64,000 bases of DNA, from NCBI GenBank assembly GCA_038087875.1, contig CM075993.1, forward strand, positions 11,534,001 to 11,598,000. Reading direction: 5' to 3'. Source of the DNA: Malacoraja senta. Lineage: Eukaryota. The notes beneath the pieces are model-generated. The model did not search any database and was not told where the DNA came from. It saw only the letters and a program-made list of their open reading frames with translations. Shown one piece after another: positions 1,392-63,065 of the stretch. The stretch's first letter is position 1, and every line of letters begins with the position of its first letter. A program made the position numbers and the translations under genes.

Positions 1392-1868
1392 CTCTTATAG
1401 AAACATATAACATTATTAAGGGATTGGACAGGCTAGATGCAGGAACAACGTTGGGGGGAATCCAGAACCAGGGGTCACACAGTTTAACACTGAGGGGTTG
1501 GCCATTTAGGACTGAGAGGAGGAAAAACTTTTTCACGCAGAGAGTTGTGAATCTGTGGGATTCTCTGCCACAGAAGGCAGTGGAGGCCGATTCACTGGAT
1601 GTTTTCAAGAGAGAGTTAGATTTAGCTCTTAGGGCGAACGGAATCAAAGGGTATGGGGAGAAAGCAGGAACGGGGTACTGATTCTGGATAGACAAAAATG
1701 CTGGAGAAACTCAGCGGGTGAGGCAGCATCTATGGAGCGAAGGAAATAGGCAACGTTTCGGGCCGAAACCCTCCTTCAGGATTGTGGATGATCAGCCATG
1801 ATCATATTGAATGGCGGTGCTGGCTCGAAGGGCCGAATGGCCTACTGCCCCCCATTTTCTATGTTTCT
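1392..1868 (+). mobile_element. CR1 LINE 3' fragment
   Basis: ORF2 C-terminal motif RKNFFTQRVVNLWDSLP and 3' UTR ending TTTCTATGTTTC. Interrupted at 1690-1779. Confidence 0.9.
1690..1779 (-). mobile_element. Short PLE-derived element with degenerate hammerhead core
   Basis: Minus strand reads CTGAAGGAGGGTTTCGGCCCGAAACGTT. Flanked by gatt(c/g)tggat repeats at 1680-1689 and 1780-1789. Confidence 0.75.
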
Positions 1869-3520: not shown

Positions 3521-3880
3521 AATACAGCATGGAAAGAGGCCTTTCGGCCTGTTGTTCCATGCCGGCCCTTGATGACGTTATATCCATTCATTCCATTCTC
3601 CAGCAAACCATCCCCATGCATGGAGTGCATTTATAAATATGACCCGGCTAATGGCGTGTTCGACATGTTGGAGTCACCCAGCACAGGAATGGGCCCAGTC
3701 TGAAGAGGGTTCCAACCCAAAATGTCACCTATTTTTTTCCAGAGATGCTGCCTGACCCGCTGTTCCTCCAGCAATTTGTGTCTATCTTCGGTATAAACCA
3801 ACATCTGTAATTCCTTCCTTCAGATGGGAACGGGCCCTTCAGCCCACCATGTCCATGTTGACTGCCAAGTAACATCAGAG

Positions 3881-4196: not shown

Positions 4197-4261
4197 ACCA
4201 GCACTTGGCCCAGAGCCGTCCGTGCCTCACTGATCCAAGTGCTCATTCCATGTTGTGATGG

Positions 4262-4990
4262 AAGATCTCTCCGCCACCTTCTCACTCAATGTGTCCGAGA
4301 TTCCAACAAGCCTCCGTTGAAAAAAAAGTCCTCAACTCCCTATCCCATTGCAACCATTTTAACTCCCCTTCCCATACCCACACTGACCTTTCTGTCCTGG
4401 GCCTCCTCCATTGCCTGCGGTACGCCACATGCAAACTGAAGGAACAGCTCCTCATATTCCACTTGGGTCGTTTTACAACCCAACAGTATGAACATTGAAG
4501 TCCCCAGTTTTAAGAAACACCCCCTCACACCCACCTCTCTCTTCCCTGCCAGCTTCCTTGCCTGGTGCACAGACAGTTCTCTCATCATCTCCCAACACAC
4601 CCACCCTGCCCATTACCCTTCCACTTTCCCATGCATTCCACACTCATCTCCCATCCCAGATCCCTTATTTGCCTTTTATCCCCATTTTATCCCCCCCCCC
4701 TTGTCCCCTTCTACCCATATCCTTCTTTCCGGATTTACATTCCACCCCTCTTCTTATCTCACAACCCTCTGTCTCCTCTCCATCTCTGGTCTTTGTCCAC
4801 CCATCTGCCATCAAACTGCATCCACCTATCACTTGCCAGGCTTTGTCCTGCCCCCATCTCTCCTTTCCAGCTTTTGCTACCCTACTTCAATCAGTCTGAA
4901 GAAGAGTCCCGACCAGAAAGGTCACCTGTCTAGTCCCTCCATAGATGCTGCCTGACCTGCTGAGTTCCTCCAGCACTTTGTGTTTTGCCC
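4262..4990 (+). mobile_element. Penelope-like element 3' fragment (GIY-YIG C-terminus plus pLTR-like end)
   Basis: NHFNSPSHTHTDLSVLGLLHC...KLKEQLLIFHLG motif; ends in a degenerate ctgaagaa...gaaa core and the gatgctgcctgacc..gagt tail. Confidence 0.8.
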
Positions 4991-5378
4991 ATGCCCGACT
5001 ATCGTGTTCCATCTCACTGGACAAGCTCACTTGGATTACAAAGCACTGGAGTAGCTCAGCGGGTCAGGCAGCATCTCTGGGGAACATGGATAAGGTGATG
5101 TTTTGGGTCGGGACCACTTCTTCCTGAGTAGATGCTGTGAGGGTACCTGTGTCTCCACAACCTTCTCAGGCAGTATGTTCCAGATTCCAACCAACTCAGT
5201 TGAAAAGAAAGTCCTCTAATCTCTTTCCCATGTAACCATTTTAACTCCCATTCCCATTCCCACACTGGCCAGATGCTACCTGAGTCACTGAGTTACTCCA
5301 GCACTTTGTGTCTTTTTTTGTGAACCTGTATCTGCAGTTCCTTGTTTCTACCTCCTCACTTTGATGATCCACACTTAC

Positions 5379-6575: not shown

Positions 6576-7462
6576 TACCTGTTGAAACAGATACACCCTC
6601 TTGGAAGCTGTCGGGACGGACGACACTTCCAGTCTGAGCGGCGGACAGGTCTTTCAATCAAATCCTGGCGCTGTGGCTCAACCGGAGAGACCTACGTCAG
6701 GTACCGCCGTAGTGGTAGGGGACTCAATAGTGAGAGGTACCGACAGGAGATTCTGTGGCAACGGGCGAGACTCGAGGATGGTGTGTTGCCTCCCTGGTGC
6801 CAGGGTCCATGACGTCTCGGACTGATTGCTGGGCATCCTCAAGTTGTGCGTGTCGGCATAAACGACGTCGGGAAGAAGAGGAAGGAGGTTCTGCAACTTG
6901 AGATTTGATAAGGGAATTCTCGACCCGAAACGTCACCCATTCCTTTGCTCCATAGATGCTGCCTCACCCGCTGAGTTTCTCCGGCTTTTTGTCTACCTTT
7001 GAGATTTAGGAAGAAGCCTGAAAAGCATGGCTTCTAGGGTGGTTATCTCTGGTTTGCTTCCAGTACCTCATGCTGGTGAGGGCAGGAACAGGGAGATAGG
7101 GGATCTGAATGTGTGGCTGAGGAACTGGTGCAGGGAGCAGGGATTTAGATTTATAGACCACTGGGATCTCTTCTGGGGTAGGGGTGACCTGTACAAAAGG
7201 GACGTGTTACACCTTAACTGGAGGAGGAACCAACGTTCTGGCAGGCAGGTTTGCTAGTGCTACACGTGTGGGTTTAAACTAAATAGCGGGGGAGAGGATT
7301 TGCCAAATTGGAAATATATGGATGGAGTTAAAGGGAAAGAGAGTACAGTAAAAGTTATGAAAGACACCTGAATTAATGGGACAGAAAGTTCAAGAAGGGA
7401 TAAGAGAGTAAGGTCAGGAACCGGTGTGAGAGGGGAGGTGAATAGCGGAATTAAAAGTGTTA

Positions 7463-16340: not shown

Positions 16341-16449
16341 TGGCATAGGCTCGGTGCTCTCGCCATTGCCGTGCGGTCCCCTCTACAGGCGAAGCCGCGC
16401 TTCACCGCCGATGACCGCAACACCGTGAGACAGAGCAGCCTCCTCTCTC

Positions 16450-17695
16450 ACCTCCATCTAGGGACCTGAGCAGCCCTTCCAGGTGAGGCAGAGGTCACAT
16501 GCACCTCCTCTAAACTCATCCACTGTATTCGATGCTCCTGATATGGCCTCCTTTACCTTAGCGACCAAGCGTAGACTAGTTGAATGTTTCACCAAACACT
16601 TGAGCTCCACCTGTCAAGGGCTACTGGATCTCCCAGTTGCTAACCATTTTAACTCCCCTACCTATACCCACACTGACCTTTCTGTCCTTGGCCTCCTCCA
16701 CTGCCAGAGTGAGGCCCAACACATCAACTGGAAGCGGAACACCTCATATTCTGGATGGGTGGTTTACAACCCAATGGTATGAACATTGAATTCTCCAATT
16801 TCAAGTACAGGTCCACCACAAATTTTCCGACAACTGGTGGTCCGGCACCTCTTTTAATCCGGACAATAAATCACGAGAACACACTTGTGAAGCACCTCCG
16901 GAAGTCCCCCCGAAAATGTGGTGCCCAGGCCGGGTGAAGCGGCCGATCTCTACCTCATCGGGACTTCCACAGCCGATCAGCGGGTTGAATTTGCCCCCTG
17001 CGGCCGGGTCTCTGGAACTCCGGCTCGGACGGAGCCGGCAGATCCGTTCCCATAGCCGACTTCCGAGGCCGACTTTGCGGGCCGGTATCTCGGCCACCCT
17101 CGGCGGCCTAGGCGGACCGTTCCGATACCGTTGGACTCCTCTCGGAGATCGTGACCTCTGTTAGACCGGCAAAATGGAAAATCCAGAAAGACTCTGGAAC
17201 CAAGGGTGCTGGAAAATCGGTGGTGGAGCTGTAATACCCACCTCTCCTCTTGGACCCCACTGTGCTCCACCCCACCCAGTGTGCATACATGCCTTCCAGC
17301 ACCCTGTTCTTGACACCCCTCCTTTCTCTCATCTCCCACCCCTACTTCAAGTCCTCCCATTTCTCTTTTATCTCTCCCCATTTCCCTCTCCACAAACACT
17401 TCCACCCATATCCCTCCCTCTGGCTTTACATTCCACTCCACCTCTCTCAGATTCTGACACTCTTTGCTCTCAATTTCACCTCTGTTACTATCTCCATCCA
17501 TCTGTCAGTTAATCCCCCCTTCTCCCCGTATCCACCTATCATTTGCCATGTTTTGCTCCCCCCCCCCCTCATCCTCAGCTTTCTCTTCCCTACTCCAATC
17601 AGTCTGAAGAAGGGTCTTGATCCGAAAGGTCCTCAGTCTATTCCCTCCAATGATGCGGCCTGACCTGTTGAGTTCCTCCAGCTCTTTGTGTTTTG
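16450..17695 (+). mobile_element. Penelope-like element 3' fragment interrupted by a MITE
   Basis: PVANHFNSP...DLSVLGLLHC...LQPNGMNIEFSNF; pLTR-like end with ctgaagaagggtcttgatccgaaa near 17604. Confidence 0.82.
16808..17231. mobile_element. Tc1/mariner (pogo/Tigger-like) MITE
   Basis: Imperfect TIRs CAG(G/C)TCCACCAC..ATTTTCC; TA duplication at 16806-16807 and 17232-17233. Confidence 0.82.
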
Positions 17696-18163: not shown

Positions 18164-19418
18164 TCTGCCTTTAATACTATTATACCATGCAAGCATATCT
18201 CCAAACTCGCAGGACTTGGTGTTAGCACTGAACTCTGCAACTGGATCCTCAACTTCCTGACCAACAGACCCCAACTGGTGAGGATAGGGGACAAACCATC
18301 CTCCACGATAATCCTCAACACTGCAGCTCTGCAAGGATGTTCAAGAAGGAACTGCAGATGCTGGAAAATCGAAGGTAGACAAAATTGCTGGAGAAATTCA
18401 GTGGGCGCGGCAGCATCTATGGAGCGAAGGAAATAGGCAACGTTTCGGGCCGAAACGTTTCTCAGCCCCCTTGTTTACTCCTTGTACACCCACCACTGTG
18501 CAGCCATGTACAAGTCTGATTCCATTTTCAAATTTGCAGACGACATCACCATTGTGGGCCGGATATCAAATAATGATGAGACGCAATACAGGAAGGAGAT
18601 CGAGAACCTCGTGTCCTTGTGTCGAGACAACAACCTTTCTCTCAATGTCAGCAACACAAAGGAGATAGTGATGGACTTCAGGAAGTGAAGTGGTACTCAC
18701 ACCCCAGTATACATTGACGGTGCCGAAGTGGAGATGGTTGAAAGCTTCAAATTCCTAGGAGTCAATATCACCAACAACTTCTCCTGGACCACCCACATTG
18801 AGGCTACAACCGAGAAAGCACACCAACACCTCGACTTCCTTAGGCTTAGAAAGTTTCGCATGTCCCCTACACCTCTCACCAACTTATACAGATGCATCAT
18901 AGAAATGATTTTATCAGGATACATCACAGCACGGTTTGGGAACGGCTCCATCCCAGACCGCGAGAAATTGCAGAGAATTGTGGACGTGGCCCGGACCATC
19001 ACACAAACCAACCTCCCTTCCATTGACTCCATTTACACCTCACGCTGCCTCGGCAAGGCCAGCAGCATAATCAAGGACGAGTTGCACCCCTGGCCACTCC
19101 CTCTCCCCTCTCCCATCGGGCAAAAGGTATTGAAGTATGAAAAAGCACACCTCCAGATTCAGGGCCAGTTTCTTCCCAGCTGTTATCAGGCAACTGAATC
19201 ATCCTACCACAACCAGAGAGCGGTCCTTAACAAATATTTACCACATTTAATCCTTGATCGCCTTTACCTTGCACTAAACATTATCCCCTTATCATGTATC
19301 TATACACTGTGACTTGCTCGATTGTAATCATGTATTGTCTTTCTGCTGACTGGTTAGCACGCAACAACAGCTGTTCATTGTACCTCGGTACACGAGACAT
19401 GAAACTAAACTGAACCGA
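18164..19418 (+). mobile_element. Rex1/Babar-type LINE 3' portion
   Basis: SSAFNTI, KFADDITIVG and FKFLGV motifs. A PLE mini-element is inserted at ~18343-18460. Confidence 0.85.
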
Positions 19419-26853: not shown

Positions 26854-26994
26854 CAACTCACCTGGATTCCAGGCCCAGTTCTGGACCCAGAGTCTGAAGA
26901 AGAATTTCGGCCCGAGACATCACCTATCCATGTTCTCCCAGAGATGCTGTCTGACCTGCTGAGTTACTCCTGCATATTGTGTCCTTTTATGTCG

Positions 26995-27385: not shown

Positions 27386-28247
27386 TTCAACAGTGGTTTT
27401 GATAAAGTTCATCATGGTTGGCTGCTCTGGAAGGTTGGATCGTCTCTAGAGATGCTGCCTGATCCGCTGAGTTACTCCAGCTCTCTGTGAAACATCACCT
27501 ATCCATGTTCTCCACAGATGCTGCCTGTCCCGCTGAGTTACTCCAGCATTTTGTGTCAAGCTTGGATCAAGCTTGGAACTGCAGATGCTGAAACCAGCAT
27601 CTGCAGTTCTTTCCTGCACAAATGGATCCAGACTTGGCTTCATGGAAGAAAGCAGTTCGTGGTTGATCAAGCTCCAGTTTTTCCCCCATATCCCTCAAAC
27701 CCGTGCAACCCTGAGAACAATGACTAACTCGGTCTTGAATACATTAAATGACTTGGCTTCAACTGCTTCCTGCAGCTGAGAATTCCGCCCTCAGTGGGAG
27801 AAGAATTTCCCCTCATCTCAGGCTGAAGATGTTGACCGATGGGCCACAATGAAGCACCTTGTCACATCACCCCTTGTACGTCAGCTGAATCAGAAGCGAT
27901 GGCCGTGACTCAATCAGGTCACGGTTTTGTGAAGGTCTTTCAGAGAGGCTGGTTGGACTGGACGTAAATGTAAGAACATTGGAACCCAGGGCATTAGGAG
28001 GCCATTCTTTTGGTTATGTAGAATTGTATGAGCCTTGAAATTTGAACTTTGGTGAACCTTCATCTCATTGTAGTAGAGGCCAAAAATAATAGTCTGAAGA
28101 AGGGTCTTGACCTGAAACATCACCCATTCCTTCTATCCAAAGATGCTGCCTGTCCCACTGAGTAACTCCAGCATTTTGTGTCTATTGTCGGTGTAAGCCA
28201 GCATCTGCAGTTCCTTCCTGCGCCAAACGTATCACTGATGGTGATGA

Positions 28248-37619: not shown

Positions 37620-38002
37620 TAAAAAAGACTAGCATGGATGGATAGACAAAATGCTGGGGAAACTCAGCGGGTGAGGCAGCATCTGTGGAGCGAAGGGAAA
37701 AGGCGACGTTTCGGGTCGAGACCCTGAGGGCCGTAGGGCCTGTTCCCATGCCATATGACTCTATTTAACTTTCTTTCACCTTTGACCTCTTCAGTGGCCC
37801 AGGACAGTAGTTTTCGGGAGGTCAATTTGGGGGTATAGTTTCTCTTTTGGGATCTAGGTGTGGAATTTGTTCATTAGCTGTACCAGACCTGCAAAGCTGT
37901 TTTAGACTCTCATTTACATTTGACCCTGCCGAATAAAATAAAGCTCTCAAACCAGGGTGACTGACTGTGTTCAGAACTTGGACAATATTATTGATCTATA
38001 GT

Positions 38003-38300: not shown

Positions 38301-38913
38301 TCGTGGTGATGTGGTGCAGTTTGATTAAAACAGTTTAAAATGTGTGCAACAAAAAGAACAACTGCTAGTGGCAGTGGCTATTCACCACCTGTGGATAACC
38401 TGAGCTTTAACTTACTAAAAATAATGTTTGTAAGCTGCAGAACAGAGAACTATTTGTTAGTTTTATTGATGCACTGACAGTCACTTAGTAAGATTTTTAA
38501 AACATTTGCTCATAAACCTTAAAACCACCATAATTAATGCCTTTGCATTGAGAAAACCCAGGTGCACCTTCTGCAAACAGAGTTAGCAGATATGGTGTTG
38601 AATTGCATCTGGGCTTAGCCTGAAGAAGGTCCCGGACTGAAACGTCACCCATCCTTTATCTCCAGAGATGCTACCTAACCCGCTGAGTTACTCCAGAACG
38701 TTGTGTCCCTCTCGGGCTCAGGCCAGCTTAATGGTCAAGAACACCTTTCAAGTTTAAAACCAATTCAGAGATCCTAAGTTGCAACAAATGTTATTTCTGT
38801 GCATTGTTCTGTAGTGGGTACGTGGAACAAACTGCCAGAGGAGGTAGTTGAGGCAGGTACTGTATAACATCAATTAAAAGACTTTACTTTAGACTTTAGA
38901 GATACAGCATGCA

Positions 38914-41882: not shown

Positions 41883-42968
41883 TGTACGACCCAGGGTGTC
41901 CAGCTGTTTACCTGCACAAAAATCACCTTTATGTTTCACGTGAGGCATCTCACTTTGCAGCAGATTTATTCTCTGCTGAGTTTGATCACTGCCACTCGTT
42001 GTGAGCGGGATTGTTAATGGGACATTCCAAGGTGAGAGGTTTTACATGGGCCAGGCTTGCAATCTATCAACCATTGCAACAAGTTAGTGGAACATAAAGT
42101 AGGTTTTTGAGATAATGGCTCCCTGCAGTAAATCATAAAGCTAACTCTGTTTGAAAATGGAGGTTATTGTGTTGCAGGCATCATATATTATGCTATTATG
42201 TATAGCCTGCTCTAGGAGATAGGTTGTGTGTAGTGCATCAGTCCAGCGGTATTTATAAATGATTGATCACCCTGACAACAGCTGGGGAACGTGCTGGTAA
42301 CCCATTTTTCTTCTTTACTGGGGAAGACAATATTTCAAATCGATACAATATGCAGGAACCGCACGGCTTCGAAACCTTGTCTGTGGCGAGGCAGGAGTAT
42401 ATGTGCACACTAAAACCATTCATCAGGTCTGACTAACAAGAAAGTTTCTACAGGAACAAAGAGTCACCCAGATTAGTTGAGGGAACCAAAGTGAACACAC
42501 TCTGAGAGTGAAAGAACTGCAGATGCTGGTTTAAATCGAAGATAGACACAAAATGTTGGAGTAACTCAGCGGGGCAGGCAGCATCTCTGGAGAGGTGGAA
42601 TGACCCCAAAACGTCACCCATTCCTTCTCTCCAGAGATGCTGCCTGTCCTGCTGAGTTACTCCAGCGTTTTGTCTACACTCTGAGTGAAGTTCACTTGAA
42701 ACTCTTCTCCAACACTGTCTCTGCGACAACTCTTTTGTGACTTTTGCCACTTTTATCGTCACTTTTATCGTATCTTTTTTAATCTTCATTTTAGTCCTGT
42801 AATATCATTGCTGAGGTGACCCGTTGTCTTGTCAAACACATTTCATTGTACCGTCGACCCTGTGTTAACCTACATATGACAAATAAAACTGAACTGAACT
42901 GAAGCGCTTCACCTTGCCCCCTCTCATACAACGAGTGCAATGGACAGAGGTACTTTCTCCAACATTAT

Positions 42969-43168
42969 NNNNNNNNNNNNNNNNNNNNNNNNNNNNNNNN
43001 NNNNNNNNNNNNNNNNNNNNNNNNNNNNNNNNNNNNNNNNNNNNNNNNNNNNNNNNNNNNNNNNNNNNNNNNNNNNNNNNNNNNNNNNNNNNNNNNNNNN
43101 NNNNNNNNNNNNNNNNNNNNNNNNNNNNNNNNNNNNNNNNNNNNNNNNNNNNNNNNNNNNNNNNNNNN
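42969..43168. other. Assembly gap (200 N)
   Basis: Run of N. Confidence 1.
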
Positions 43169-43585: not shown

Positions 43586-46580
43586 TTAAACATACTCGCC
43601 ATATCTGTCAGGCAGTCTACTAATACGGCCCGAACGCGTACGGACCAAGCCCTCTCCCCCTTCCCCAGAAAAATAAGAGGGAGGCGGTGAACCCGGAAGT
43701 GAGAAAGCAGCAGGGGACACCCGTGGTGACCGACAGGGGGAGCATGCGGTAGAGGTAGTATTGTTGTTAGTCATGGCCGCCGGTCATGGTGGGGTAAGGG
43801 ACATGCTGGGACTGGTGGTGGACACGGCAGCAGGGCTGGAACAGTAGAGGTGGAACGAAAGGATCAGCTGGTGGTGGACGTGGTTCCTTCACAGCCAGCA
43901 AGTGTTGGCGGCTCCGACGGTACAAGGTGCCATCGATGTCAACAAGGTAAGATCGGGGTTCTTCAGACGGGCCAACAACGCAACCCAAATGGGAATGTCC
44001 CACAGTAGTTTGCAAACGGACGACTTGGCCCGGTAGTAGTGGTTTAAGTTGTTTGCAGGAGTTGTCATGAGAACGTTTCTGGATGCCGTGTTCCTCCTCG
44101 ATGCGCTTCTGGACCGCGGCTGGCTTCAGCACCTGTGGCACCAGCTTCTGCTGGGCAATCGGTATCGGAGGTCGCGTTGTCCTGGACATCAGTCGTTGGG
44201 CTGGTGAGCCCAGCATCCCATCTCTAGCAATGTTCCTGTGGTTTAAGAGGTCGAGATACACTTCTGACTTGGCTAGGTGGGCGCGTTCCATTAGCTGTTT
44301 AGCGCTTCTGACGGCTCGTGCAGCGAGCTGTTTAGCGCTTCTGACGGCTCGTTCAGCGAATGTGGAGAAGTGTTTCTGTAGCTTTTGAATGACCATCTCT
44401 GATGTGATAGAAGGCAGTAAATCAAGTTTGAACCAGTTAGAATAGGAGTCAACCAGGACTAGATAATGTTTACCGTGCCACTTGAAAATGTCTGCCGCCA
44501 GCGAAGTCCAGGGTAGTGCTGGTGGAGGTTGTTGCAGCAGGGCTGTCTCTGTTGGTGCGGCGCCAGGCTGTTGCAGATGGGGCAGGAGGCTGTCTTGTCC
44601 CATATGTACTTGGCCATGCCGGTCCAGTAAAACATGTTCTGTGCGTGGGCCAGCGTGGCATTGGTACCTGGGTGACCGCTGTGTGCCTCTTTGTAGTATT
44701 CGTCATGTAGTGATGAAGGGATCACGATGTTGTGGCCCTTAACTATGACACCGTCCTGTATTACCAGTTCATCACGGACAAAGAAGAATGGCTACACCTC
44801 CAGTGGCGTGCTGGATTGCCTGTCTGGCCAGCCTCTCTTTATTATAGATGAGAGTAGCTGGAGGGTGGCGTCAGCGGCTGTGTGTTCGGCTAGGCGGCAT
44901 AATTGTTTTGTGGGAACAAAGTCAATGCTTGAGAACCGTAAACTCGTCCCGTTCGTAGGGCTGTCGTTCATTGGATGCCCATGGTGCGCGAGAGAGGGTG
45001 TCAGCAACGAGCATGTCTTTACCCTTTTTGTAAACAATTTTGAAGTCAAATCGCTGGAGTTGCATCATCATACGCTGCAGACGTGCAGGTGCTGCGTGGA
45101 TAGGTTTGTTGAGGATGGTCACAAGAGGTTGGTGGTCTGTCTCGACCGTGAAAACATTCCCAAAGATAAAGTCCTTGAATTTAGAACAAGCGAAGACCAC
45201 AGTCAGCAGCTCCTTCTCGATTTGCACGTAGCGCTGTTCGGTGTCGGTCATGGTGTGGGAGGCATAGGAGACAAGACGTAAAGTTCCATCGGCAGATGAT
45301 TGTAGGCAGGCGGCGTCGAGTCCAAATCGTGAGGCATCGCAGGTAACTGTCACAGGGCGCTTCAGGTCGAAAAATGTCAAGGTGGGTGCGCTGGTCAGCC
45401 TCGATTTTAAAACATCAAATGCTTTTTAGTGTTGCTGGAACCAGGACCAGGCAGTATCCTTTCGAGTTAGTTGTCTCAGAGGGGAACTCAGTTCACTGAG
45501 GTTCGGTATGAACTTTCCCACATAGTTCACCATACCCAGGAATCGCTGCAGGCTGAACACGTCGGTGGGGGCTGGCATCTCTGTGATGGCAGCTGTTTTT
45601 TTCGGATCCGGCTTGAGACCATCAGGAGTGAACACATGTCTGACATAGGTGACTTCTGGAACTGTGAACTTGCACTTGTTAGGGTTGAATTTCAGGTTGA
45701 TCTGACGTGCCCGGTCCATGATAAGCTTTAGGTTGTTGTCATGCTCCGCTGTGTCCTTGCTATAAACCAGGATATCGTCTACGATGATGGCACACCGGGA
45801 GGCCCTGGAACAGAAGTTCCATGTTTCTCAGGAAGACTTCACTGGCCGAGTTGATGCCGAATGGCATTCTTAGAAATTTAAATCTGCCAAATGGAGTGGC
45901 AAATGTGGTCAGGTTTGACAACTCGTCATCTAGCGGTATCTGCCAAAATGAGCTTTTTGCATCAAGGACTGAAAATACAATGGCTCATCCGATCTGCGCA
46001 GCGACGTCATCGACGGTCCTCATAGGATAGTGTGGACGCCTGATGGCAGCGTTCAAATCTTTTGGGTTGGTGCATACGCGGAACTCATTTTTATCCTTCT
46101 TAAGGGTGGCAACCATAGTGGAAACCCATTCAGTGGATTCACTGATCTCTTCTAGTATGCCTCAGGAGACCATGTTCTTTAGTTCAGACTCAATCCTGTC
46201 ACTCATAGCGTGTGGCACACGGTGAGGTGCACGGACAACTGTGTCAACATTGGGGTCAATGGATATCTTGTAGGTCACGGGCAGCTTGCCTAGTTTACCA
46301 TCGAACAGATGGTATTCTTTTACCGGGTCCACAGATATCAGTAGCTTGTGGACTGACCGGTCAAAGAAACCAGCCCTAAGTCTTGGCATGCATGGATGCC
46401 CAGTAGTGTCACAGTCAGAATTCAAAACATAGAAGGTCAGATTTTCAGCACACATTTAAAAGTGGTTCTTCCCAGGGGATACAAAACTTCTCCTCCGTAG
46501 GCATGTAGAGTGGACTTGTCTTTAGTCAAGGCCTCATTATTTCTTATCTTGTTGTAGTTGTGCACAGACATTACATTAAC
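43586..46580 (-). pseudogene. pol: Gypsy pol (protease remainder, RT, RNase H, integrase), frameshifted
   Basis: MPFGI, IVDDILVY, RFLGMVNY, CDAS, IEKELL, ETDHQPL and VADTLSR motifs; integrase HHCC (H..HPG...CPIC) and TRSGR tail. Confidence 0.92.
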
Positions 46581-46584
46581 TCTT

Positions 46585-47611
46585 TTTAAAAAGGGAGGGA
46601 GAGAGAAAACAGGGAATTACAGACCAGTTAGTTTAACATCGGTAGTGGGGAAACTGCTAGAGTCAGTTATTAAAGATGGGATAGCAGCACATTTGGAAAG
46701 TGGTGAAATCATTGGACAAAGTCAGCATGGATTTACGAAAGGTAAATCATGTCTGACGAATCTGATAGAATTTTTCGAGGATGTAACTAGTCGAGTGGAT
46801 AAGGGAGAACCAGTGGATGTGTGATATCTGGACTTTCAGAAGGCTTTCGACAAGGTCCCACATAAGAGATTAGTATACAAACTTAAAGCACATGGTATTG
46901 GGGGTTCAGTATTGATGTGGATAGAGAACTGGCTGGCAGACAGGAAGCAAAGAGTAGGAGTAAACGGGTCCTTTTCAAAATGGCAGGCAGTGACTAGTGG
47001 GGTACCGCAAGGCTCAGTGCTGGGACCCCAGCTATTTACAATATATATTAATGATTTGGACGAGGGAATTGAATGCAACATCTCCAAGTTTGCGGATGAC
47101 ACGAAGCTGGGGGGCAGTTTTAGCTGTGAGGAGGAAGATAGGAGGCGGCAAGGTTACTTGGATAGGCTGGGTGAGTGGGCAAATGCATGGCAGATGCAGT
47201 ATAATGTGGATAAATGTGAGGTTATCCACTTTGGTGGCAAAAACAGGAAAGTAGACTATTGTCTCAAAGGTAGCCGATTAGGAAAAGGGGAGATGCAACG
47301 AGACCTGGGTGTCATGGTACACCAGTCATTGAAAGTAGGCATGCAGGTGCAGCAGGCAGTGAAGAAAGCGAATGGTATGTTAGCATTCATAGCAAAAGGA
47401 TTTGAGTATAGGAGCAGGGAGGTTCTACTGCAATTGTACAGGGTCTTGGTGAGACCACACCTGGAGTATTGCGTACAGTTTTGGTCTCCAAATCTGAGGA
47501 AAGACATTCTTGCCATAGTGGGAGTACAGAGAAGGTTCACTAGACTGATTCCTGGGATGATCGAAGGGCCAAATGGCCTACTCCTGCACCTATTTTCTAT
47601 GTTTCTATGTT
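46585..47611 (+). mobile_element. CR1 RT fragment inserted in the Gypsy protease
   Basis: [19 protein letters not shown] and KFADDTKL motifs; internal deletion at ~47560; TCTT at both junctions. Confidence 0.93.
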
Positions 47612-47615
47612 TCTT

Positions 47616-48654
47616 GCACCAGTGTCTAGCTTGGCCTTCACAAGTTTATTATTAATTGACATCAGAACTGAAGGATCGAGAATCTTACCAGCTGTGTGAA
47701 GGAGTGAATGCACAGTTGACTCCCCGTAAGAGTTAATTGGACTGTCCTCGGGGGCAGAGTCGAACTGGTCTTGAGAAACAGGAATTGTTTGATCTTGTTG
47801 CAGCAGGTGCAGATTAGACGCTGAACTAGAGGGTCTTTTCCCACGGCTCTGCAAACGATGGCAAAATGGTTCATTTTCTTGCAGTAATTGCAGGACTTTC
47901 CATAAGCAGGACAGGTAGTTCGCCCTTTGTTGTGGAAGTAGTTACAATTAGGACATCTCCGAGGAGGCTCATTGGCGAATCCCTGATTAGCCGGTTGAGG
48001 GGGCTCAGTCATAAATCTTCTGTTATCGGTCGGTGTTTATAGTCTGTTGAAACCCGTCAGGTTTATAGTCTTCTTCTCAAGGTCAAGCTGTTCGCTTAAT
48101 GGTGCAACAAACTCAGACATACGACAGGCATGTGTTGCTTGCTCAAGCGTTAAATCAGGATTCCGCAGTAACTCAGCCCGTAACTTCTGATCAATCATCC
48201 CAATAACTAGTTTATCACTTATCAGCTCATTCGTCATAGTTTCGAATCGGCACCTCTGAACCATGTATCTTAAATCACAAATAAACCTCTCCACCGGCTC
48301 ATCAGGAAGCTGGTGTCTCGCAAAGAATTTAGCTCTTTCTAAAATGCGGTTCGACGGTAGGTCGCATATCTCACGGAATTTACGCAGTAAAACATTAGGG
48401 TCATGCATAGACTCGGCAGGCACAACTACCTGTTCGTTGTCGTCTTGAACGGCTGGTGCATATTCAAAAGTCCGAGCTCTCATCATGGCCTCGGGTCCTG
48501 CAAGGTTAAGTAGAAGGGAAGTCTTGACAGCGTCTGGTTCATTTCGGTGGACGATATTGATGTAGTGTCCGTAATTAATCTCAAAGAGCCGCCATCGTTC
48601 ACCGATGTCGGAATCATAGATAAGCTGTGCAGGCTTCCTGCATGAGTGAGCCAT
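47616..48654 (-). pseudogene. gag: Gypsy gag with two Cys/His knuckles and start of protease
   Basis: ORF 48654-48037, then an in-frame stop, then CPNCNYFH...CPAYGKSCNYCKKMNHFAIVC, and KLDTGA after a frameshift. Confidence 0.9.
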
Positions 48655-50431
48655 AGCGAAGCAAGAAAAAAACCTGATAAACAGAAATAAAAAACGGTAA
48701 ACGGACGCGGTGGGTTACTTCAAGCTAACTGACACCATGTACATAAGTAATCTACACGATCTGTAGTTCAAGATCATCTTTAATCAGTAGCCATATTATA
48801 ACGGTACAGCAGGTTGTTAGTTGTTAGTTCATCGTTACCACTTCCAAGACTGACCATTGTAGGAAGTGGGTGTTAGTATGAATCATACAGTAAGGTGGGG
48901 TTAGTGATGCTATTCTACTATGATTGGCCCACATGCATTAACCAATCTACATAAATAAATATGCTAGATAGTAGAAAATCCTTTCACTTACCGGAGGTAT
49001 CTAAATCTGGAGGACTTAAGTATAGCACAACAGTAGGAGGTTTAAAGGGGATCTGAGGTAGAACTGGTTCACCAGAGTGTAGTTGAAATCTGAAGTGTAC
49101 AGTCTGAGTAGGAGGTAGAGGTAAATACTCTCACAATATTTATGTTTTAAGGTGAGGCTTGAATCGCTAAGGCATTGAAGCCCATGGTCCAAATAGTTAT
49201 TAAATGGGAATTGTACAAAGGGGTGTTTAATCGTTAGGATGGACAAGGTTGACAAGGAGCCTGTTTCTGTGCTGTATGATTCCATGATTATTTGTTTCTT
49301 TCTATGATACTCATTGCTCTGATGGAATTTACACTACACAATGCATCATTACAAAAAAGTTTATGACTTTCCTTTAGTACAGAGACTAAAACTGCACACA
49401 GTATACCAAATGTAGTTTCAGTCATAGGGTTTATTTAAAGATGAAATTGATTCATTTCTGGACGCAAAATCAATCAAGGGATTGAGGGATCAGATAGTAA
49501 AGTGGACTTGAGGAATACTCTCAACTGTGATCCTATTGAATTGCTGTGATCCTATGTGACATGAGACGCGACCAACTCCTGTTTCATTTCTTACATGCTT
49601 ATGCTCATCAATGTGGAGGTCATCATTTATTTTTAAACTTATCCACTCCTCAGGCTTAATGCTCTTATTTGAAACAATATAAACCTTTCAATTGACTATG
49701 ATCTTTAGCTTCCTAGATATAGCTGAATCACACTTTCTACATTGTTTTAAGTTAGCAGAAGATTGTATATTTATTTTGGTCAACATCTCTCCTGTCTTAG
49801 TCCCTGTGCCTCACTGCCTCACAATCCATTCCGTGCTTCTGCCTTCAAGCAGCAGCTATAAGTCCCATTCATCTTATTCACACTCTCTTTTAAAGCTTCA
49901 CAGCGTGTTTATATTGCAGCTACTCAAACATTACACGATCCTGTCCATTGTGGTTGATTTAAAAAGTTCATCAGCTTCACTTTAATTTTAATCTGTTTGA
50001 GGATTTGAAATTCATAGAATCAATCAGTCTTCTGTGTTGTTTAAAGTGGAAAAGAAATAAGCTAGTTTTAACTGAAAAACATCTTAAAATATTGGATTTG
50101 TTATCCGTCACAAAATCTTCCTGGAAACAAATTACTTTATTAAGCTTTTATAATTCTTCATAATGTCTTTTTTAGCAGCATATGCTAATTTTTATGGTAA
50201 CAAACACAAAACTAAATGAGCTTACAGAGCATTTGTAGAATTTGTGATACAATAATGTAGCCCAATATGCAACATTTACAAATATACTATTAAGTCCTTC
50301 TGAAAATAGTTACCATTGACAAGATACCACATGGTAGGCTGGTCTGGAAAGTTAGATATTTTGGGATCCACTGAATACAATTTTTTTATGCAGGACAACT
50401 GAATACAAATTTTTCTTGAAAATAGGAGACC

Positions 50432-51150: not shown

Positions 51151-52721
51151 AGTACACCGGGTGGTGCCAGCAATGTCTGCCTCGCCATCAGTCTGTCTGT
51201 CCTTTCCATCTTTGTGTTTTAATTGTATGCGTTAAATGTATGTTTTCAGTGTTCTTTAGCTTGATTTATGTGGGAGGTGGGTTTGGGGGTTGAGGGAAAA
51301 AAGGAAAGTGCAGATCCCCTTGTGTAGCACAGGAGTAATCTACAGTATGTATATCCATGTGCTCCAGAGATGCTGTCTGACCCACTTCGTTACTTCAGCA
51401 CTTTGTATCTTTTTATCATTAAAACATTCACAATAGTGTTGTCATTTTGCTACAGACTCTTATTCTTTTTTAGTATTCTGGTTCCTTCAACAACTTACAG
51501 AAATTTGGAGGAGACAAAATATTCTCCAAGGAGTTTCAAATGATTTGCAAGATGGAGCACCCTTGCATTTTTACACAATTCTAGATTACCCTAAAAGTTA
51601 TTTTTTCATCTTAAAAGTCTCTAGACCACAGTCTATCTTTAACATAGTTTGACATTTTACTGTGACTTTTAGACAAACCAGGGGTTTCACTCCTCCCAGC
51701 AGGAGGCAAAGATCACTACAGGGTCATGTGGAATGCAGCTCATAACAAACCTTAAATCTTTCCCAGCCAAATACTACATGGCTCCTCGGAAGAGGTCAGG
51801 ACAGTCAAATTATGAAATCACTGTTCCAGTGCACTGATGATCTACTCTATGGCACAACAGTGCATGGTTGTTGACTGGAATCAGGAGTCATGTGGCTGGT
51901 AGCCATTCTCCAGTTTGACAAAATGGATAAATATTAAAGATTGCAAAATGGAGAATTTTACATCACTTCTTTCTGGAAACGGGATGATGATGCATTCATT
52001 ATTGTCACACCAGCTGCATATTCAGGAAGTGAAAATCCTCCTGGTTGTGATACATCTTAGAGTTCACACGTGGAACCTCTAACCTTAGTGTTGCAGACAG
52101 ATCCAGCCCAGAAACAGGCCTTTCAGCCCATTGAGTCCATGAAGACAATGGTCCACTCATGCACACTAATAGTAAGATTAAATGAGAACTTACCAGTTTG
52201 AAGTTTGATCTTTATTTTATGAGGAGTTACGTTGGTGATTACGTGAAGAAGACCCGTCACGATGCATGCGCGTCAATCTTCAAAGCAGCGGTATGAAATC
52301 ACAGACAACACCATAATTGAAGTAACATATTAAGATGATCAACATGAGAACTACCATTATGATATTTTTTCTATGAGAGAGGGTTGGGCGTGGCGGGCAC
52401 GTAATCACCAACGTAACTCCTCATAAAATAAAGATCAAACTTCAAACTGGTAAGTTCTCGTTTAATCTTACTATTTTACTTCGGAGTCACGTGAGTGACT
52501 ACGTGAAGATTTTAAAGCTCTGTGATTTTTATGCCGCAGATCAAAATCCAGGCTTCTCACTGCATCGATTGACTCTGAGTATCATCAATAATGCTGTAAA
52601 CATGACATTGCATATCATGCAAAAACAAAACAGTTTTATTTTTGGTCATAAAACAACCAATAAACCCTCTTAATGTAGGGGCAACAAACGAAACAGAATT
52701 AAACAGTATTGAAAACAGACT

Positions 52722-53696
52722 TTAAACAATAGCAACAGCACTCAATATTGAGTTGGCAAACAGCCCTCCATCGGCAATCGGCCAATGGTAGTATTGCTGA
52801 AACACAAGTTCATTTTTCCAACCTGCAGCTTTTAATATATGGTCGATGGGAACGTCCATCGCCCTGGCCGCGGATGTTGCTACTGCGCTAGAGGAATGAG
52901 ATGTAAACACATAAATGTTAATTCCTGCCTGAACCAACTCTTGCTTTAACCACCTTGAGATAGTCTGAACTGCCACTCTTTTATGTTGGCTTCTTGTAAC
53001 TGACAAATAATCCTGTTTCTTCTTGTCTTAAAGCCCTTGTGGCTTCAATGTAATGTAACAAATGTGTCCTTACACATAAACATGGAGCTGTAGGATATGC
53101 TGAGAACACAATCTTAAATCCTGTCACACCTGGCCTGCTTTGTTTGAGCAGGTCATAAATATAAAACAGAACATTCTCTGTAGTCACTTCCATTCCAGCT
53201 AACTGAAGGTTTTGCAAAGTCTGCACTCTCTGTACTGACACCAATGCCATTAGCATAGTCAATTTCATGGTTAATTTTAACAAAGTTATAGACGTGACAG
53301 GGACCCAATGACGAAGCATGTTAAGAACAATGCTTACATCGCAGATTACCATATACCTAGGCTTAGGCGGTTTGGAATTAAAGATTCCTTTCATCAACCT
53401 AGATATGAGAGGGTGAGAACCTATACTTTGTGTCCGTGTACCTATTACAAGACATGCCGACAAAGCACTTCTAGCTGTATTGATAGCAGTATAGCTAAGA
53501 CCCTCATCATAATAAAGTGTAGATAAAACTCTAACACATTTTCAATAACTACAGTATCATATTGAATATTCTTTTGAACACCATATTGTTCCCAATTTTT
53601 TACATAAGTCATATACTGCTTTTGAGTACTCTTTCTCCAGGCTGCAGTGAGTATATCCACTGTTGGCCTAGAAAGTCCTCGACCAATGTAAGGCAT
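52722..53696 (-). pseudogene. DIRS tyrosine recombinase (frameshifted)
   Basis: WRKSTQKQY N-domain; LMALVSVQRVQTL; LKQSRP; HSSSAVATS (HxxR with Arg lost); ILKAAGW...FQQYY. Confidence 0.9.
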
Positions 53697-53778
53697 TCTT
53701 AAAAACCTGCAAATTAACAGATCAATACGATCACATAACGGATGAACTTAACGCGTTACTGGATGCTCCAGCAAATTC

Positions 53779-55290
53779 CTACTGTTTGGAATCAGCAAAA
53801 GGAGGTTGGATCGTTATCTGTAACATCAAAGGGAACCATGGTTGAATCAGGCAATTTGGTATCACCAAAACCCCTGAAGCGGCATCCTGCTTGATTTTCC
53901 TCAAACACCGACCTATGAGGCAGAATGGTGGGAAAATGTACACAAACATATCATCCCAATTTAGTGAAAAAGCATCAATTGCCACTGCCCCTGGATCTGG
54001 TGCCCATGAAACATATTTTGGCCTTCCATATAGAAGTACTATGTTCTTGAACACATCCTGGTTCAACATCCACTCTGTATTATCATGGAATTTTCGTGAC
54101 CTGCCATCTGGTACTACATTCAGTTTCCCTGGCAGATAGATAGCTCCAATCCAAATATCTCTATCCATACTCCAGGTCCAATTTTATTTGCCAACCTGTC
54201 ACATGATAACAATTTGATTCCACCCATGTGATTCATATCAGCAACTGCTGTAGTGTTGTCTATTTTGCACTGCACATGCAAACTAGTTTTGTTAGTGCCA
54301 TAAGCCTTGAGTCCATAAAATACTCTTGGTTAATTCCCCATGTTTGCAGAAGCAATGTCCATCTGTCTCCACTGCTGGATCTTGTATCAGTAGCACCCTA
54401 CCCAAGTGCTCTGACATCTGTCTGCAAAATCATGGAAGGTTGGTCCAATAACACTTTGGAACTACTAGTGGACACATGCTGAATCCACCATTGTACATCA
54501 GCAACAGCCTCTATTGATAGAAGCATAGGTCTATTATAATGACCCCAATGTATCCTCAGTGCTTGTTCCTTTGACCTTTGTAATTGTAGATAATAAAGAG
54601 GCCACTATTGAACTTCTGGAAATGCTGCCAGCAATTTCCCCAGCAGACTTGTCACCTGGCTAATTGAAGGCTGTGTGTCAGCAATTAACTTGATACAGCT
54701 CTTAATTAGCTCTACCCTTTTTTGCCTGGGCAAGGTCACAATCATGTTGATTAAGTCTATTGTGAACCCAACTAGTAAATTTGTGTCACAGGTATTAATT
54801 TAGATTTCTCTGGATAGCTTATGAAGCCCAATTTATTAAAAGTGGTTTTTACCAACTGCCAATGATGCTTCAGCTGCTTCCTTTGATTGTCCTACAATCA
54901 AAATATTATCTAGTTAAGCCATAAGCACATGCCCTTGACTTCTCATCATGCCTAGAATAGGTTTTAACAACTTTGTAATCACTCTAGGAGCTGAAGACAA
55001 ACCATTAGGCAGTGCATTGTATTGCCATAATTGCCCCATCCAGCTGAATTTTAAATCTTCTATCCTGCAAATGAACAGACACTGAATCCGCATTTTTAAG
55101 ATCTCCTTCACAAACGTTTCCATCTATACCGTACAAAAGGGTTAAGCCTATTCATGTGCTGTATAATTCTGCATCCCCCATCCTTTTTTGGTCTGGGAAA
55201 GATATTGGACACAAACTGATGGCTTTGGTAAACTGCCTTAGCAATTACACCTTTATTACATAAGCTTGCAAGTTCCACCTGAACTTCCAA
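53779..55290 (-). pseudogene. DIRS RT / RNase H / methyltransferase-like ORF (frameshifted)
   Basis: FVSNIFPRPKKDGGCRII, LPNGLSSAPR, LDNILI (YLDD remnant), YLPGKLNVVPD and DAFSLNW...YIFPPF. Confidence 0.88.
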
Positions 55291-55591
55291 TTGTTCAGTG
55301 ATACTGAAGTCAAACTCCTTTTTGGAACATGTTGCATGGGTAAATCAGAATTTGCATTAAGCTTTATTCGAAACCCTTCAATAACCTTCAGTATAAACAT
55401 ATCTGAGGTATCACATTAGATCTGTCTACATGAGAACCAGACCCACTTACCACCTGGCATTCTTCCCCGGCCTCGAGCTGGATATCTCACCTTCCCTGGT
55501 GCTGCTACAGCCGAACGCCAACTGCGCTGCATCGTAGCTGGACTCGTCCGTTGCCCGGACCAGTCTCCTGGCTTATAGGGATACTTCCACT

Positions 55592-56690
55592 TTAGTGGAT
55601 ATGTGGCTGCCTAATCAAGCCCACCGTCTTGGCCTCCTCCACCAGCTCCTTCACCTGCTTTGCGAAATCCTCGCCAAACAGATTTGCCGGTTGCACTGTG
55701 CCAGGCTGGCAGAGTGAAGCATATTTAGGGTAGATGGTTGGTCTAAGCGCAGTCTTGCGAAGGCAGTTGATCTCAGTGCCACAATAGCGCCACACCTTTC
55801 GTTGTAATTTTGTCATGGCCTCTCCATCCACCATCCTGGCAAAGCTCGTTATGCCAGATGCCAGCAACTTAAAAAAAAAATGGAGCTTCACCTCCTCCTG
55901 GGCTCTCATTAGTATGCCCATCTTGCCCCAAATCTTCCTGTTCCCAACTGGAACCTTTAACAGGCCACAGTTGATTGGGGCTTCATGCTTCCTTACTGTC
56001 TCATCCATTGTCAGCTCCTGTAGCTGATGTGAGACTTGGTAATTTATGCTGGTGGCAAGTTCCTCACCCAGAGGCTCACCAGCGTCGGACGACATGGCAA
56101 ACCGTGCTGCACACGGTGTCAGCTCTGGCCGCTGCCTGCCCTCCCTTTGGAAGTCGTCGTCAGACTCAGGGTCAGAGCGTATCTGCCCTTCTGCACTCAC
56201 CTCTTGCAAAGAGGGTGCTTTCAAACAGGCCTCTACTAGGCACTGCCGGCGGAGCCTTCCCGACGGCCTCCCGCCCACACAACTCCTCCTGGAGTATGGC
56301 TTTGTGGAGCAGGCCTCTCCTAGGCACTGCCGGCGGAGCCTTCCCTACAGCCTCCCGCCTGCACAACTCCTCCTGGAGTGTGGCTTTGTGGAGCAGCCCC
56401 TGTATGAGCTGCTCCTTTTGGATAACCGCTGGGGCACGGTATCCTGTCGCCGACGGGACTCTCCTGGCCCGACTCTGCGGAGTCAATGGCCCTGACAGAC
56501 TTGGCTTATGCCTACCGCCCGACTGGCGTTGGCTGTGTACCCGGCTGGGCACTTTGCCAAGTCTGTCGCCGCACCGCTACCGGCTTGCGACTCCCCAGAG
56601 GTGACAGGCTGCCTTTCAGAGACTGCGCTCCCGCAGCTCTCTCTCTCCTTGTCCGTAGCAGGCCTGCACCTTGATGATTTTTTCCTTGTT
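55592..56690 (-). pseudogene. DIRS ORF1 (gag-like), frameshifted, with 84-bp tandem duplication
   Basis: P.NC..LKVP...IW and LFGEDFAKQVKE motifs; position upstream of RT. Confidence 0.7.
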
Positions 56691-57219: not shown

Positions 57220-57550
57220 TTCAGGCAGAGATGTCCCCCCATTCCCACAATGACTTTTCTGTCCTAGGCCTTATCTCTATTGTCAGAGTGAGGCTAAATG
57301 CAAATTGGAGGAACAGCACCTCATATTTTGCTTGGGCATCTTTCAACCCAATGGTATAAATATTGACTGGAGAGAAGGAAAGGGTGACGTTTTGGATCGA
57401 GACCCTTCTTCAGTCTGAAGTCTGAAGAAGGGTCTCGACCTGAAACATCACCCTTTCCTTCTCTCCAGAGATGCTGCCTATCCCGTGAGTTACTCCAGCA
57501 TTTTGTATCTATCTTTGGTTTAAACCAGCGTCTGTTCTTCCTTCCTACAC
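57220..57550 (+). mobile_element. Penelope-like fragment with head-to-head pLTR-like ends
   Basis: KLEEQHLIFCLG..QPNG motif; inverted arms at 57367-57413 and 57422-57468. Confidence 0.8.
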
Positions 57551-62254: not shown

Positions 62255-63065
62255 ATCAAATGCTGGAGAAATTTAGCAGGTCAGTGGGAGAGAGTGACAT
62301 TTTGGAAAGCTGGAAAAGAGATGGGAGCAGTATAAAGCCCGACAAGTTATAGATAGATCCAGGTAAGGGTGTGATTCGCAGATGGGTGGAGTAAATGACA
62401 AAGGCTCGTGGATAAAAGGAGAGAAAAGAGTATCAAATAAGGAAAGAAGAGGAGAAGTGAAATGTCAAATCAGAGAAAGAGATATGGGTGCAAGGCCACA
62501 TGGGGAGGGAAAGAGAGGGGATTAAAGGGAAATTCCGGTGGGGAAATGAGCGACAGAAGAGGGGACAGGAGCAGGGTGACTAGAGGTGGTGGGAGATGAG
62601 AGAGGGGTATTATTTTAAATCGGAGAATTCATTGTTCATACTGAAGAAGGGTTTCGGCCCGAAACGTTGCCTATTTCCTTCGCTCCATAGATGCTGCTGC
62701 ACCCGCTGAGTTTCTCCAGCATTTTTGTGTACCTTCACTGTTCATACTGTTGGTTTGTAGGCTACCCATGTGGAATGCAAGGTGCTGTTCTTCCAATTTT
62801 AAGGAATAACAGCTTCCCACTCCTCCACTCTTCCTCCTGTGCCCCAAACACCCGCATACACCTTTCTCCCATTATCTCCTATCACCATAGTCACCCTGAG
62901 CTTTTCCCTTCCTCCTTCTTTCCTTATCTGACATCCTTTAGTTTACGTTTCACCTCTAGCCTTTGACACTCCACCCATCTGCCAATCATACCCCTCACCT
63001 GTAAGCAGCTATCACTTGCCCCCACACCCATCTCTCTTTTCCAGCTTTCTCCCCCCCACTGTGGT
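62255..63065. mobile_element. Penelope-like fragments in opposite orientations
   Basis: Minus-strand LEEQHL/MNNEFSDF remnant with purine-rich 3' region; plus-strand pyrimidine-rich counterpart. Confidence 0.65.
62641..62668 (+). ncRNA. Minimal type I hammerhead ribozyme core (stem I not evident)
   Basis: CUGAAGA-A-[GGGU UUCG GCCC]-GAAA-CGUU: conserved core, stem II, palindromic ACGU stem III. Confidence 0.65.

Follow-up and report, generated by a model that had tools for sequence, protein, structure and literature searches.

The closest described relatives of the repeat considered here are the minimal type I hammerheads of metazoan Penelope-like elements (PLEs), for which the main result of the 2014 survey was that thousands of dispersed single motifs occur per genome (Cervera and de la Pena, PMC4209133). 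According to the same source, single copies left by truncated elements amount to about 4,000 in coelacanth and 9,000 in Xenopus, the consensus reads CUGANGAH-G..C-GAAAN-palindrome-NUH, and the 56 motifs of its Fig. S3, of which none comes from a cartilaginous fish, include forms with a 4-bp stem II closed by a tetraloop and forms with a 2-bp helix I. For the Poseidon element PAc of Anolis carolinensis, ribozyme mutants have been reported to insert normally, uncut RNA to be the main template, and cleavage to need protein (Frangieh et al. 2024, PMC11167929); low, dimer-dependent or protein-assisted activity has likewise been reported for Penelope hammerheads (PMC11167929, PMC6765202). Among endonuclease-bearing PLEs, the Neptune and Nematis clades carry a CX2-5CxxC linker, the clade features used here being those described by Craig et al. 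2021 (PMC8557442). Animal non-LTR retrozymes are pLTR-derived, hammerhead-bearing and non-coding, and are defined by tandem units of which two or more in a row hold a complete ribozyme (Li, Clavereau and Pollet 2026, bioRxiv 10.64898/2026.07.22.740005).

The window analysed here is the whole stretch of 64,000 nucleotides from Malacoraja senta. The repeat that it harbours resembles the metazoan hammerheads of the 2014 survey in the core boxes, the extra base, the G10.1-C11.1 pair, the loopless palindromic stem III, the pLTR position and the dispersal as single copies; it differs from the published set in that its 4-bp stem II is short and its stem I lies at the weak end of the range, and the family may be much more numerous (PMC4209133). 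With PAc it shares a hammerhead upstream of two tail-defining starts of reverse transcription (RT) and, as argued below, copies apparently made from uncut RNA, whereas PAc is an element of the Penelope/Poseidon clade with an ORF that begins within the ribozyme (PMC11167929), and the relatives of the window ORF mostly have the Neptune/Nematis linker. A C-terminal GIY-YIG endonuclease (EN) with CCHH motif, 5' truncation, inverted partners and a tail are shared with the EN+ elements of the Neptune clade, an assignment made by feature description, linker and reverse transcriptase being unreadable in the window (PMC8557442). In contrast to the tandem retrozymes, whose chondrichthyan families average 363 bp, the window holds dispersed monomers of 90-130 bp (bioRxiv 10.64898/2026.07.22.740005). 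The repeat is regarded here as a newly found family of the known association of Penelope pLTR and minimal hammerhead, which the supplements of the retrozyme study may already list; it is a demonstration neither of a new ribozyme class nor of an active ribozyme.

The hammerhead core and its copies

The initial annotation had placed a hammerhead core at 62641-62668 (+), and the predicted CUGAAGA-A-GGGU(UUCG)GCCC-GAAA-CGU-U is indeed found there, with 12 of the 12 core bases, a 4-bp stem II and a loopless ACGU stem III; the cut is predicted after 62668. The pattern CUGANGA-13 nt-GAAANNUH has five exact matches in the window against a chance mean of 0.05, and none of 100 shuffles reached five. With two mismatches allowed, nine matches compare with 0.84 by chance, the one at 1936 not being the repeat. 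Since the five exact matches are copies of one repeat, the excess over shuffles counts one origin many times. No hammerhead match was returned by any of three Rfam searches (the whole window and two short stretches), and scans of viral and metagenome contigs with the core pattern gave no match.

An HMM built from window copies yields 22 nhmmer matches at E<=0.01, one of them borderline and several being pieces of one composite insertion (Table 1). The core is complete (12 of 12 bases) in 5 of the 14 anchored copies, including that at 62641. The variant GGGU(CUCG)ACCC-GAAACGUC was recovered at 37705-37724 (minus) and, truncated, at 6919-6934, as had been claimed, and a profile search of the window identified as copies of one repeat all eight positions previously called decayed. 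For 1752-1779 the word decayed goes too far, this copy sharing 95% identity with that at 62641 and having a single change in the core. Beyond the cores listed initially, others lie at 57386-57413 (minus), at about 18446 (minus, in a fold-back) and at about 5100 (minus, decayed). Loose contig ends at 62651 in runs X2 and X3 reflect the same kind of inversion as the fold-back at 18440-18466 (minus).

Table 1. Copies of the repeat in the window and features bound to them
Feature	Position	Strand	Remarks
Minimal type I hammerhead core (putative)	62641..62668	+	Boxes CUGAAGA and GAAA..UU; UUCG loop; no stem I
Inserted short pLTR-end copy, young subfamily	62644..62733	+	Duplication, 3' end, empty site; 93-95% identical to copies at 1686-1779 and ~18340-18466
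Left 16-bp target-site duplication	62628..62643	+	Last three bases are CUG of the hammerhead core
Right 16-bp target-site duplication	62734..62749	+	1 mismatch
Older Penelope-like copy hosting the 62641 insert	62258..62801	-	Endonuclease ORF end at 62740-62799, continuing below 62640; pyrimidine-rich 3' UTR; pLTR end with hammerhead region deleted
5'-truncated Penelope-like copy	4334..4987	+	GIY-YIG ORF end (4334-about 4520, frameshifted), 3' UTR, core at 4896 with damaged stem II and palindrome, pLTR end
5'-truncated Penelope-like copy	16419..17694	+	GIY-YIG ORF end (16419-16805, frameshifted), 3' UTR, core at 17604; split by MITE-like insert 16806-17233
Composite copy	57238..57547	+	ORF-end fragment 57238-57367; inverted partial pLTR 57367-57416 (core 57386-57413 minus); then direct pLTR, core 57422, tail
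Young-subfamily short insert	1686..1779	-	Starts exactly at C3; 10-bp duplication (1 mismatch); core A9 changed to G
Short insert with tail	3697..3825	+	Starts 3 bases before C3; 11-bp duplication (1 mismatch); core decayed
Short insert	6908..6998	+	Starts at about third core base; 9-bp duplication; 5' box damaged
Short copy without CUGA box	37640..37725	-	Stem II and GAAACGUC intact
Young-subfamily copy with tail	18340..18466	-	Fold-back 5' end at near-palindromic stem II/GAAAC segment
Short copy	26891..26985	+	Starts 3 bases before C3; core decayed
Short copy with tail	28088..28225	+	Core boxes, stem II, 2-bp stem I; palindrome broken (ACAU)
Short copy	38617..38708	+	1-base deletion after CUGA box; stem II damaged
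Inverted pair of decayed pLTR ends	5036..5315	.	5038-5117 minus and 5253-5313 plus, around ORF-end fragment
Head-to-head inverted pair of pLTR ends	42511..42678	.	Without 5' core box; one with tail
Two partial pLTR ends in direct order	27443..27559	+	11-bp duplication (1 mismatch); without 5' core box
pLTR end without hammerhead	51353..51412	+	Profile match

The repeat belongs to a very large family, as the initial annotation had supposed, and one that is common to related species. Contigs aligning to a 421-base stretch, which support its size qualitatively and are not a copy number, range from 35,468 to 93,556 per run in four runs from three organisms, and nearly all of the depth falls on the repeat.

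Read as a column majority, eight full-length copies give a complete set of hammerhead parts (the two boxes, stem II, ACGU and a stem I of 2 bp), which no window copy possesses by itself. The claim that stem I reaches at most 2 bp stands for the copies at 4896, 26894, 28094 and 57422, all four with a broken palindrome, but the 62641 copy itself has 0 bp. AGU precedes the core in the loose contig ends of four runs, and the family pairs stem I by one G-C and either U-A or U-G, a weaker combination than in the published 2-bp forms, where both pairs are G-C (PMC4209133). Stem III is, as described, a loopless palindrome, ACGU in the 62641 copy and in the column majority, and is broken in 8 of 32 cells, mostly at CpG. 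The extra base after A9 and the G10.1-C11.1 pair opening a paired stem II are likewise present in both. Across 13 copies, 82.7% of stem II cells are paired. The two alternatives U-G and U-A, put forward as preserving stem II, do both pair, but they represent a one-sided change and not a compensation; covariation failed the check, its score being reached by 105 of 500 shuffles in an alignment of 13 decayed copies with three rows imperfectly aligned.

Changes from the majority affect 8 of 146 cells in the core boxes against 73 of 602 downstream (p=0.018), a comparison biased in the 5' box because copies were recognised by that box; the GAAA..U box alone (5/80 changed, p=0.14) falls short of significance. 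An earlier value of p=1e-5 for core conservation was set aside, being biased by the choice of eight intact-looking copies.

Several other features lie in the same window. The MITE-like insert at 16806-17233 has 23-nt terminal inverted repeats (87% complementary), begins and ends in TA, and is presumably of Tc1/mariner type. The stretches 4250-4388 and 5132-5270, 79% identical, show the same junction between an antisense LINE-like 3' fragment, which I take to be CR1, and a Penelope endonuclease remnant; these twin junctions are either an old local duplication or a chimeric family. An Rfam match to mir-641 at 57368-57467 (53 bits, cut-off 100) was rejected as an inverted pLTR pair, as were comparable miRNA matches at 42557-42664; such pairs could be mis-annotated as microRNA hairpins. 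ORF remnants occur at 43767-48714 (minus), which I read as an LTR retrotransposon with gag, RT, RNase H and integrase, and at 52981-56344 (minus), presumably a tyrosine-recombinase (DIRS-type) element. An assembly gap of 200 N spans 42969-43168.

The link to a Penelope-like element

In the copies at 4334-4987 and 16419-17694 an ORF end is followed by a pyrimidine-rich UTR and then, in collinear order, by the hammerhead, and the core thus lies within a Penelope-like pLTR. Along with the fit of the published consensus (PMC4209133), the junction of these two copies to a GIY-YIG ORF end bears out the previous attribution to a Penelope-type minimal type I hammerhead. By such sequence comparison, a putative ribozyme of this type is shown to be carried in the pLTR of the master elements.

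A profile of five window ORF fragments retrieved 281 proteins at E<=0.001. Pfam GIY-YIG was found in 7 of the 16 proteins scanned (E 0.00013-0.008), one of the seven reaching the curated cut-off; in two of the seven, the distant relatives P0059 and P0144, there was also a reverse transcriptase match below cut-off, a LINE-type chimera left aside. Ten relatives had their source looked up: nine are from skates, rays or whale shark and one is from a sea urchin, which by itself suggests a cartilaginous-fish host. By tblastn, the relatives map onto the window at 16419-16805, 4316-4468, 57275-57376 and 62719-62799, and the frameshifted window fragments match the latter half of the endonuclease with E values of 2e-15 to 8e-19. 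The C-terminal GIY-YIG endonuclease with CCHH motif is recognised via these matches to GIY-YIG-bearing proteins; Pfam on the window ORF fragments alone and word-index protein searches with two single fragments gave no match, and a protein atlas search returned one uninformative match at 0.76. A Penelope-type reverse transcriptase was not found in the window by motif scan or by tblastn with an RT+EN protein, which matched in its EN part only; all window copies are truncated within the endonuclease. The CX2-5CxxC linker, unreadable in the window fragments, occurs in 18 of the 28 relatives that are long enough and probably points to the Neptune type.

Some public gene models of ray and skate (P0012, P0019, P0006 and P0078), for example neuromedin-U receptor 1 and an NYAP1-like gene, have absorbed this Penelope endonuclease end, by annotation artefact or exonisation.

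Copy ends and the making of the copies

For the purpose of comparing copy ends, C3 of the hammerhead core was counted as +1. In 20 regions with 3' ends, two of which overlap each other, the ends fall into two classes, +86 to +93 in 12 and +123 to +132 in 7, one further region being an inverted arm; the two classes match the optional 30-40 bp tail of Penelope-like elements (PMC11167929, PMC8557442). Inverted partners occur at three places in the window. Target-site duplications of 9-16 bp flank 5 of the 12 copies tested, and among 299 random positions three score like the weakest of these and none like the other four. The 62641 copy, a case in point, has landed within the ORF end of an older Penelope-like copy on the opposite strand, and one X3 contig, from another organism, has the empty site: it aligns to 62480-62632 and 62739-62900 and skips the 106 bases 62633-62738. 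Because CTG is common to the target, the 5' boundary of this insert is anywhere in 62641-62644; the core CUG lying within the left duplication, the full core of the copy may owe three bases to the target.

The explanation that I favour, and consider very probable, is that the repeat is the pLTR end of an EN-bearing PLE, probably of Neptune type, copied from uncut RNA, and that the dispersed copies are inactive passengers. The GIY-YIG endonuclease of the element would cut the target DNA, and RT would start about 60 or about 100 bases downstream of the ribozyme cut site, on uncut RNA. Both the start and the template are deduced from where the copies end and from what is reported for the anole element: the copies extend some 60 or 100 bases past the predicted cut site, so that the template RNA would have been uncut or re-joined. 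Most cDNAs would reach a length of 90-130 bases, stopping where the ribozyme core begins or close to it, and would be joined to the target there, sometimes via a few shared bases, as shown for the duplication-bounded copies. As the cDNAs would end near the core, the dispersed copies would therefore be passengers, single and in most cases lacking stem I or bearing core damage, and as monomers they are very likely inactive. Any ribozyme action would take place in tandem or read-through master transcripts, as a dimer and probably with the help of protein; along the same line, the ribozyme would be dispensable for insertion, as it is in the anole element. The 5' pile-up at the core may reflect focused truncation or an RNA 5' end. 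In the two long copies, a pyrimidine tract ending in CAG, splice-acceptor-like, stops one base before the core (4860-4895 and 17570-17603), and in the Penelope of Drosophila virilis an intron ends at helix I, which makes a splice junction a candidate.

The 5' ends bear directly on another reading, in which the Penelope protein would mobilise a 90-130 bp unit that is either a separate non-autonomous element or a full cDNA of the Penelope transcript's short 5' leader, the 5' end of the unit being that of the RNA (start site or splice junction) and not a random truncation. Four of the five duplication-bounded inserts begin within 3 bases of C3; of 11 copies extending into the 5' box, 2 stay similar upstream for more than 500 bases, and in the other 9 the likeness ends no more than about 7 bases upstream of C3; and in each of the four runs the loose contig ends on the upstream side of 62641 converge on ..ATCAGT (367-836 contigs per run). 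The three young copies (62641, 1779 and 18462) are nowhere in the window joined to UTR or ORF, and the anole element shows internal RT initiation in the 5' part of its transcript (PMC11167929). All of this would suit such a unit, yet the copies are few and other 5' ends lie at about +8, +11 and +18 to +48; the low agreement of the loose ends (0.38-0.39 over 30 letters) may reflect several unrelated UTR subfamilies, structured RNA or microhomology could focus truncation without an RNA end, and five ORF-end fragments against 22 pLTR-end matches in the window mean that long cDNAs are not rare. A leader or non-autonomous unit is hence a tentative alternative, and it is similarly doubtful that the inserts are complete cDNAs with an internal RT start at the tail sites and run-off at an RNA 5' end located at the first hammerhead bases. 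A head-less, ribozyme-shaped mini-element family of sharks and rays found no description in the literature searched, although Lunse et al. may list shark or ray examples. Since the duplication-bounded inserts start at the core, there is no room for the Pol III head of a SINE, and Rfam gave no tRNA, 5S or 7SL match in the window at E<=10. That the unit is a non-LTR retrozyme, a tandem non-autonomous ribozyme repeat spreading via circular RNA of which the window shows monomers only, appears quite improbable: head-to-tail joints (62733 or 62735 back to 62641, the letters between units not being read) do occur, in 6, 8, 17 and 18 contigs of the four runs, and retrozymes are reported from the one chondrichthyan examined (bioRxiv 10.64898/2026.07.22.740005), but these joints are few among 35,468-93,556 contigs, none of the 22 window matches forms a tandem array with intact cores, and the copies show no permutation at the cut site, their 3' ends being those of the ORF-bearing copies.

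The folding predictions raise the further question of whether the hammerhead of the family is a dead relic, of which neither monomer nor dimer would cleave, its boxes being kept by descent or for another role such as protein binding or promoter. The ribozyme fold is predicted at -3.7 kcal/mol against -10.2 for a rival hairpin that pairs the 5' box and a stem II strand with the downstream pyrimidine tract (a gap of about 6 kcal/mol), the dimer fold at -5.7 against -24.3 kcal/mol for the best cofold, and predicted stem II pair probabilities are 0.01 or less in eight of eight copies. Such figures strengthen the earlier suspicion that the window copies may be inactive, as do the lack of stem I at 62641 and of any complete copy. 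For a relic speak, besides, the weak 2-bp stem I, the report that eight of nine Xenopus retrozyme dimers were uncleaved in vitro (bioRxiv 10.64898/2026.07.22.740005) and the spread of Naiad elements without hammerheads (PMC8557442). However, both subfamilies (about 80% identical) keep the boxes, the stem II pairing and the ACGU palindrome; the boxes are changed in 8 of 146 cells against 80 of 437 for stem II, loop and tract (p=9e-5, with ascertainment bias in the 5' box); the stability of the rival hairpin does not exceed that of shuffled sequence (z about 0 in six 50-nt segments), for which reason the hairpin was also rejected as a regulatory off-switch; and energy models omit the tertiary structure of hammerheads, low or protein-dependent activity being usual in the family. 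A relic thus seems rather unlikely, and far less credence still, next to none, can be given to a chance likeness within an ordinary repeat. The missing Rfam match, the covariation short of significance and the repeated counting of one family in the shuffle excess would agree with chance, but a single origin must still yield 12 spaced core bases, G10.1-C11.1, the extra base and a palindromic stem III, at the very pLTR position where Penelope-like elements carry hammerheads.

Significance for cartilaginous-fish genomes

To sum up, the association of Penelope pLTR and hammerhead is extended to a very abundant cartilaginous-fish repeat that lies outside the 2014 survey and is undetected by Rfam. 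Its tens of thousands of sequence variants are an unusually large natural data set on the role of the ribozyme. The copy ends indicate an uncut template, and the clustering of 5' ends at the core may mark a transcript start or a stop of RT. Were the inserts complete cDNAs, sharks and rays would carry a head-less, ribozyme-shaped mini-element of very high abundance that would rank among the largest hammerhead-bearing families in a vertebrate; its copies would record the 5' end of the transcript, and its rare head-to-tail pairs would be natural dimers.
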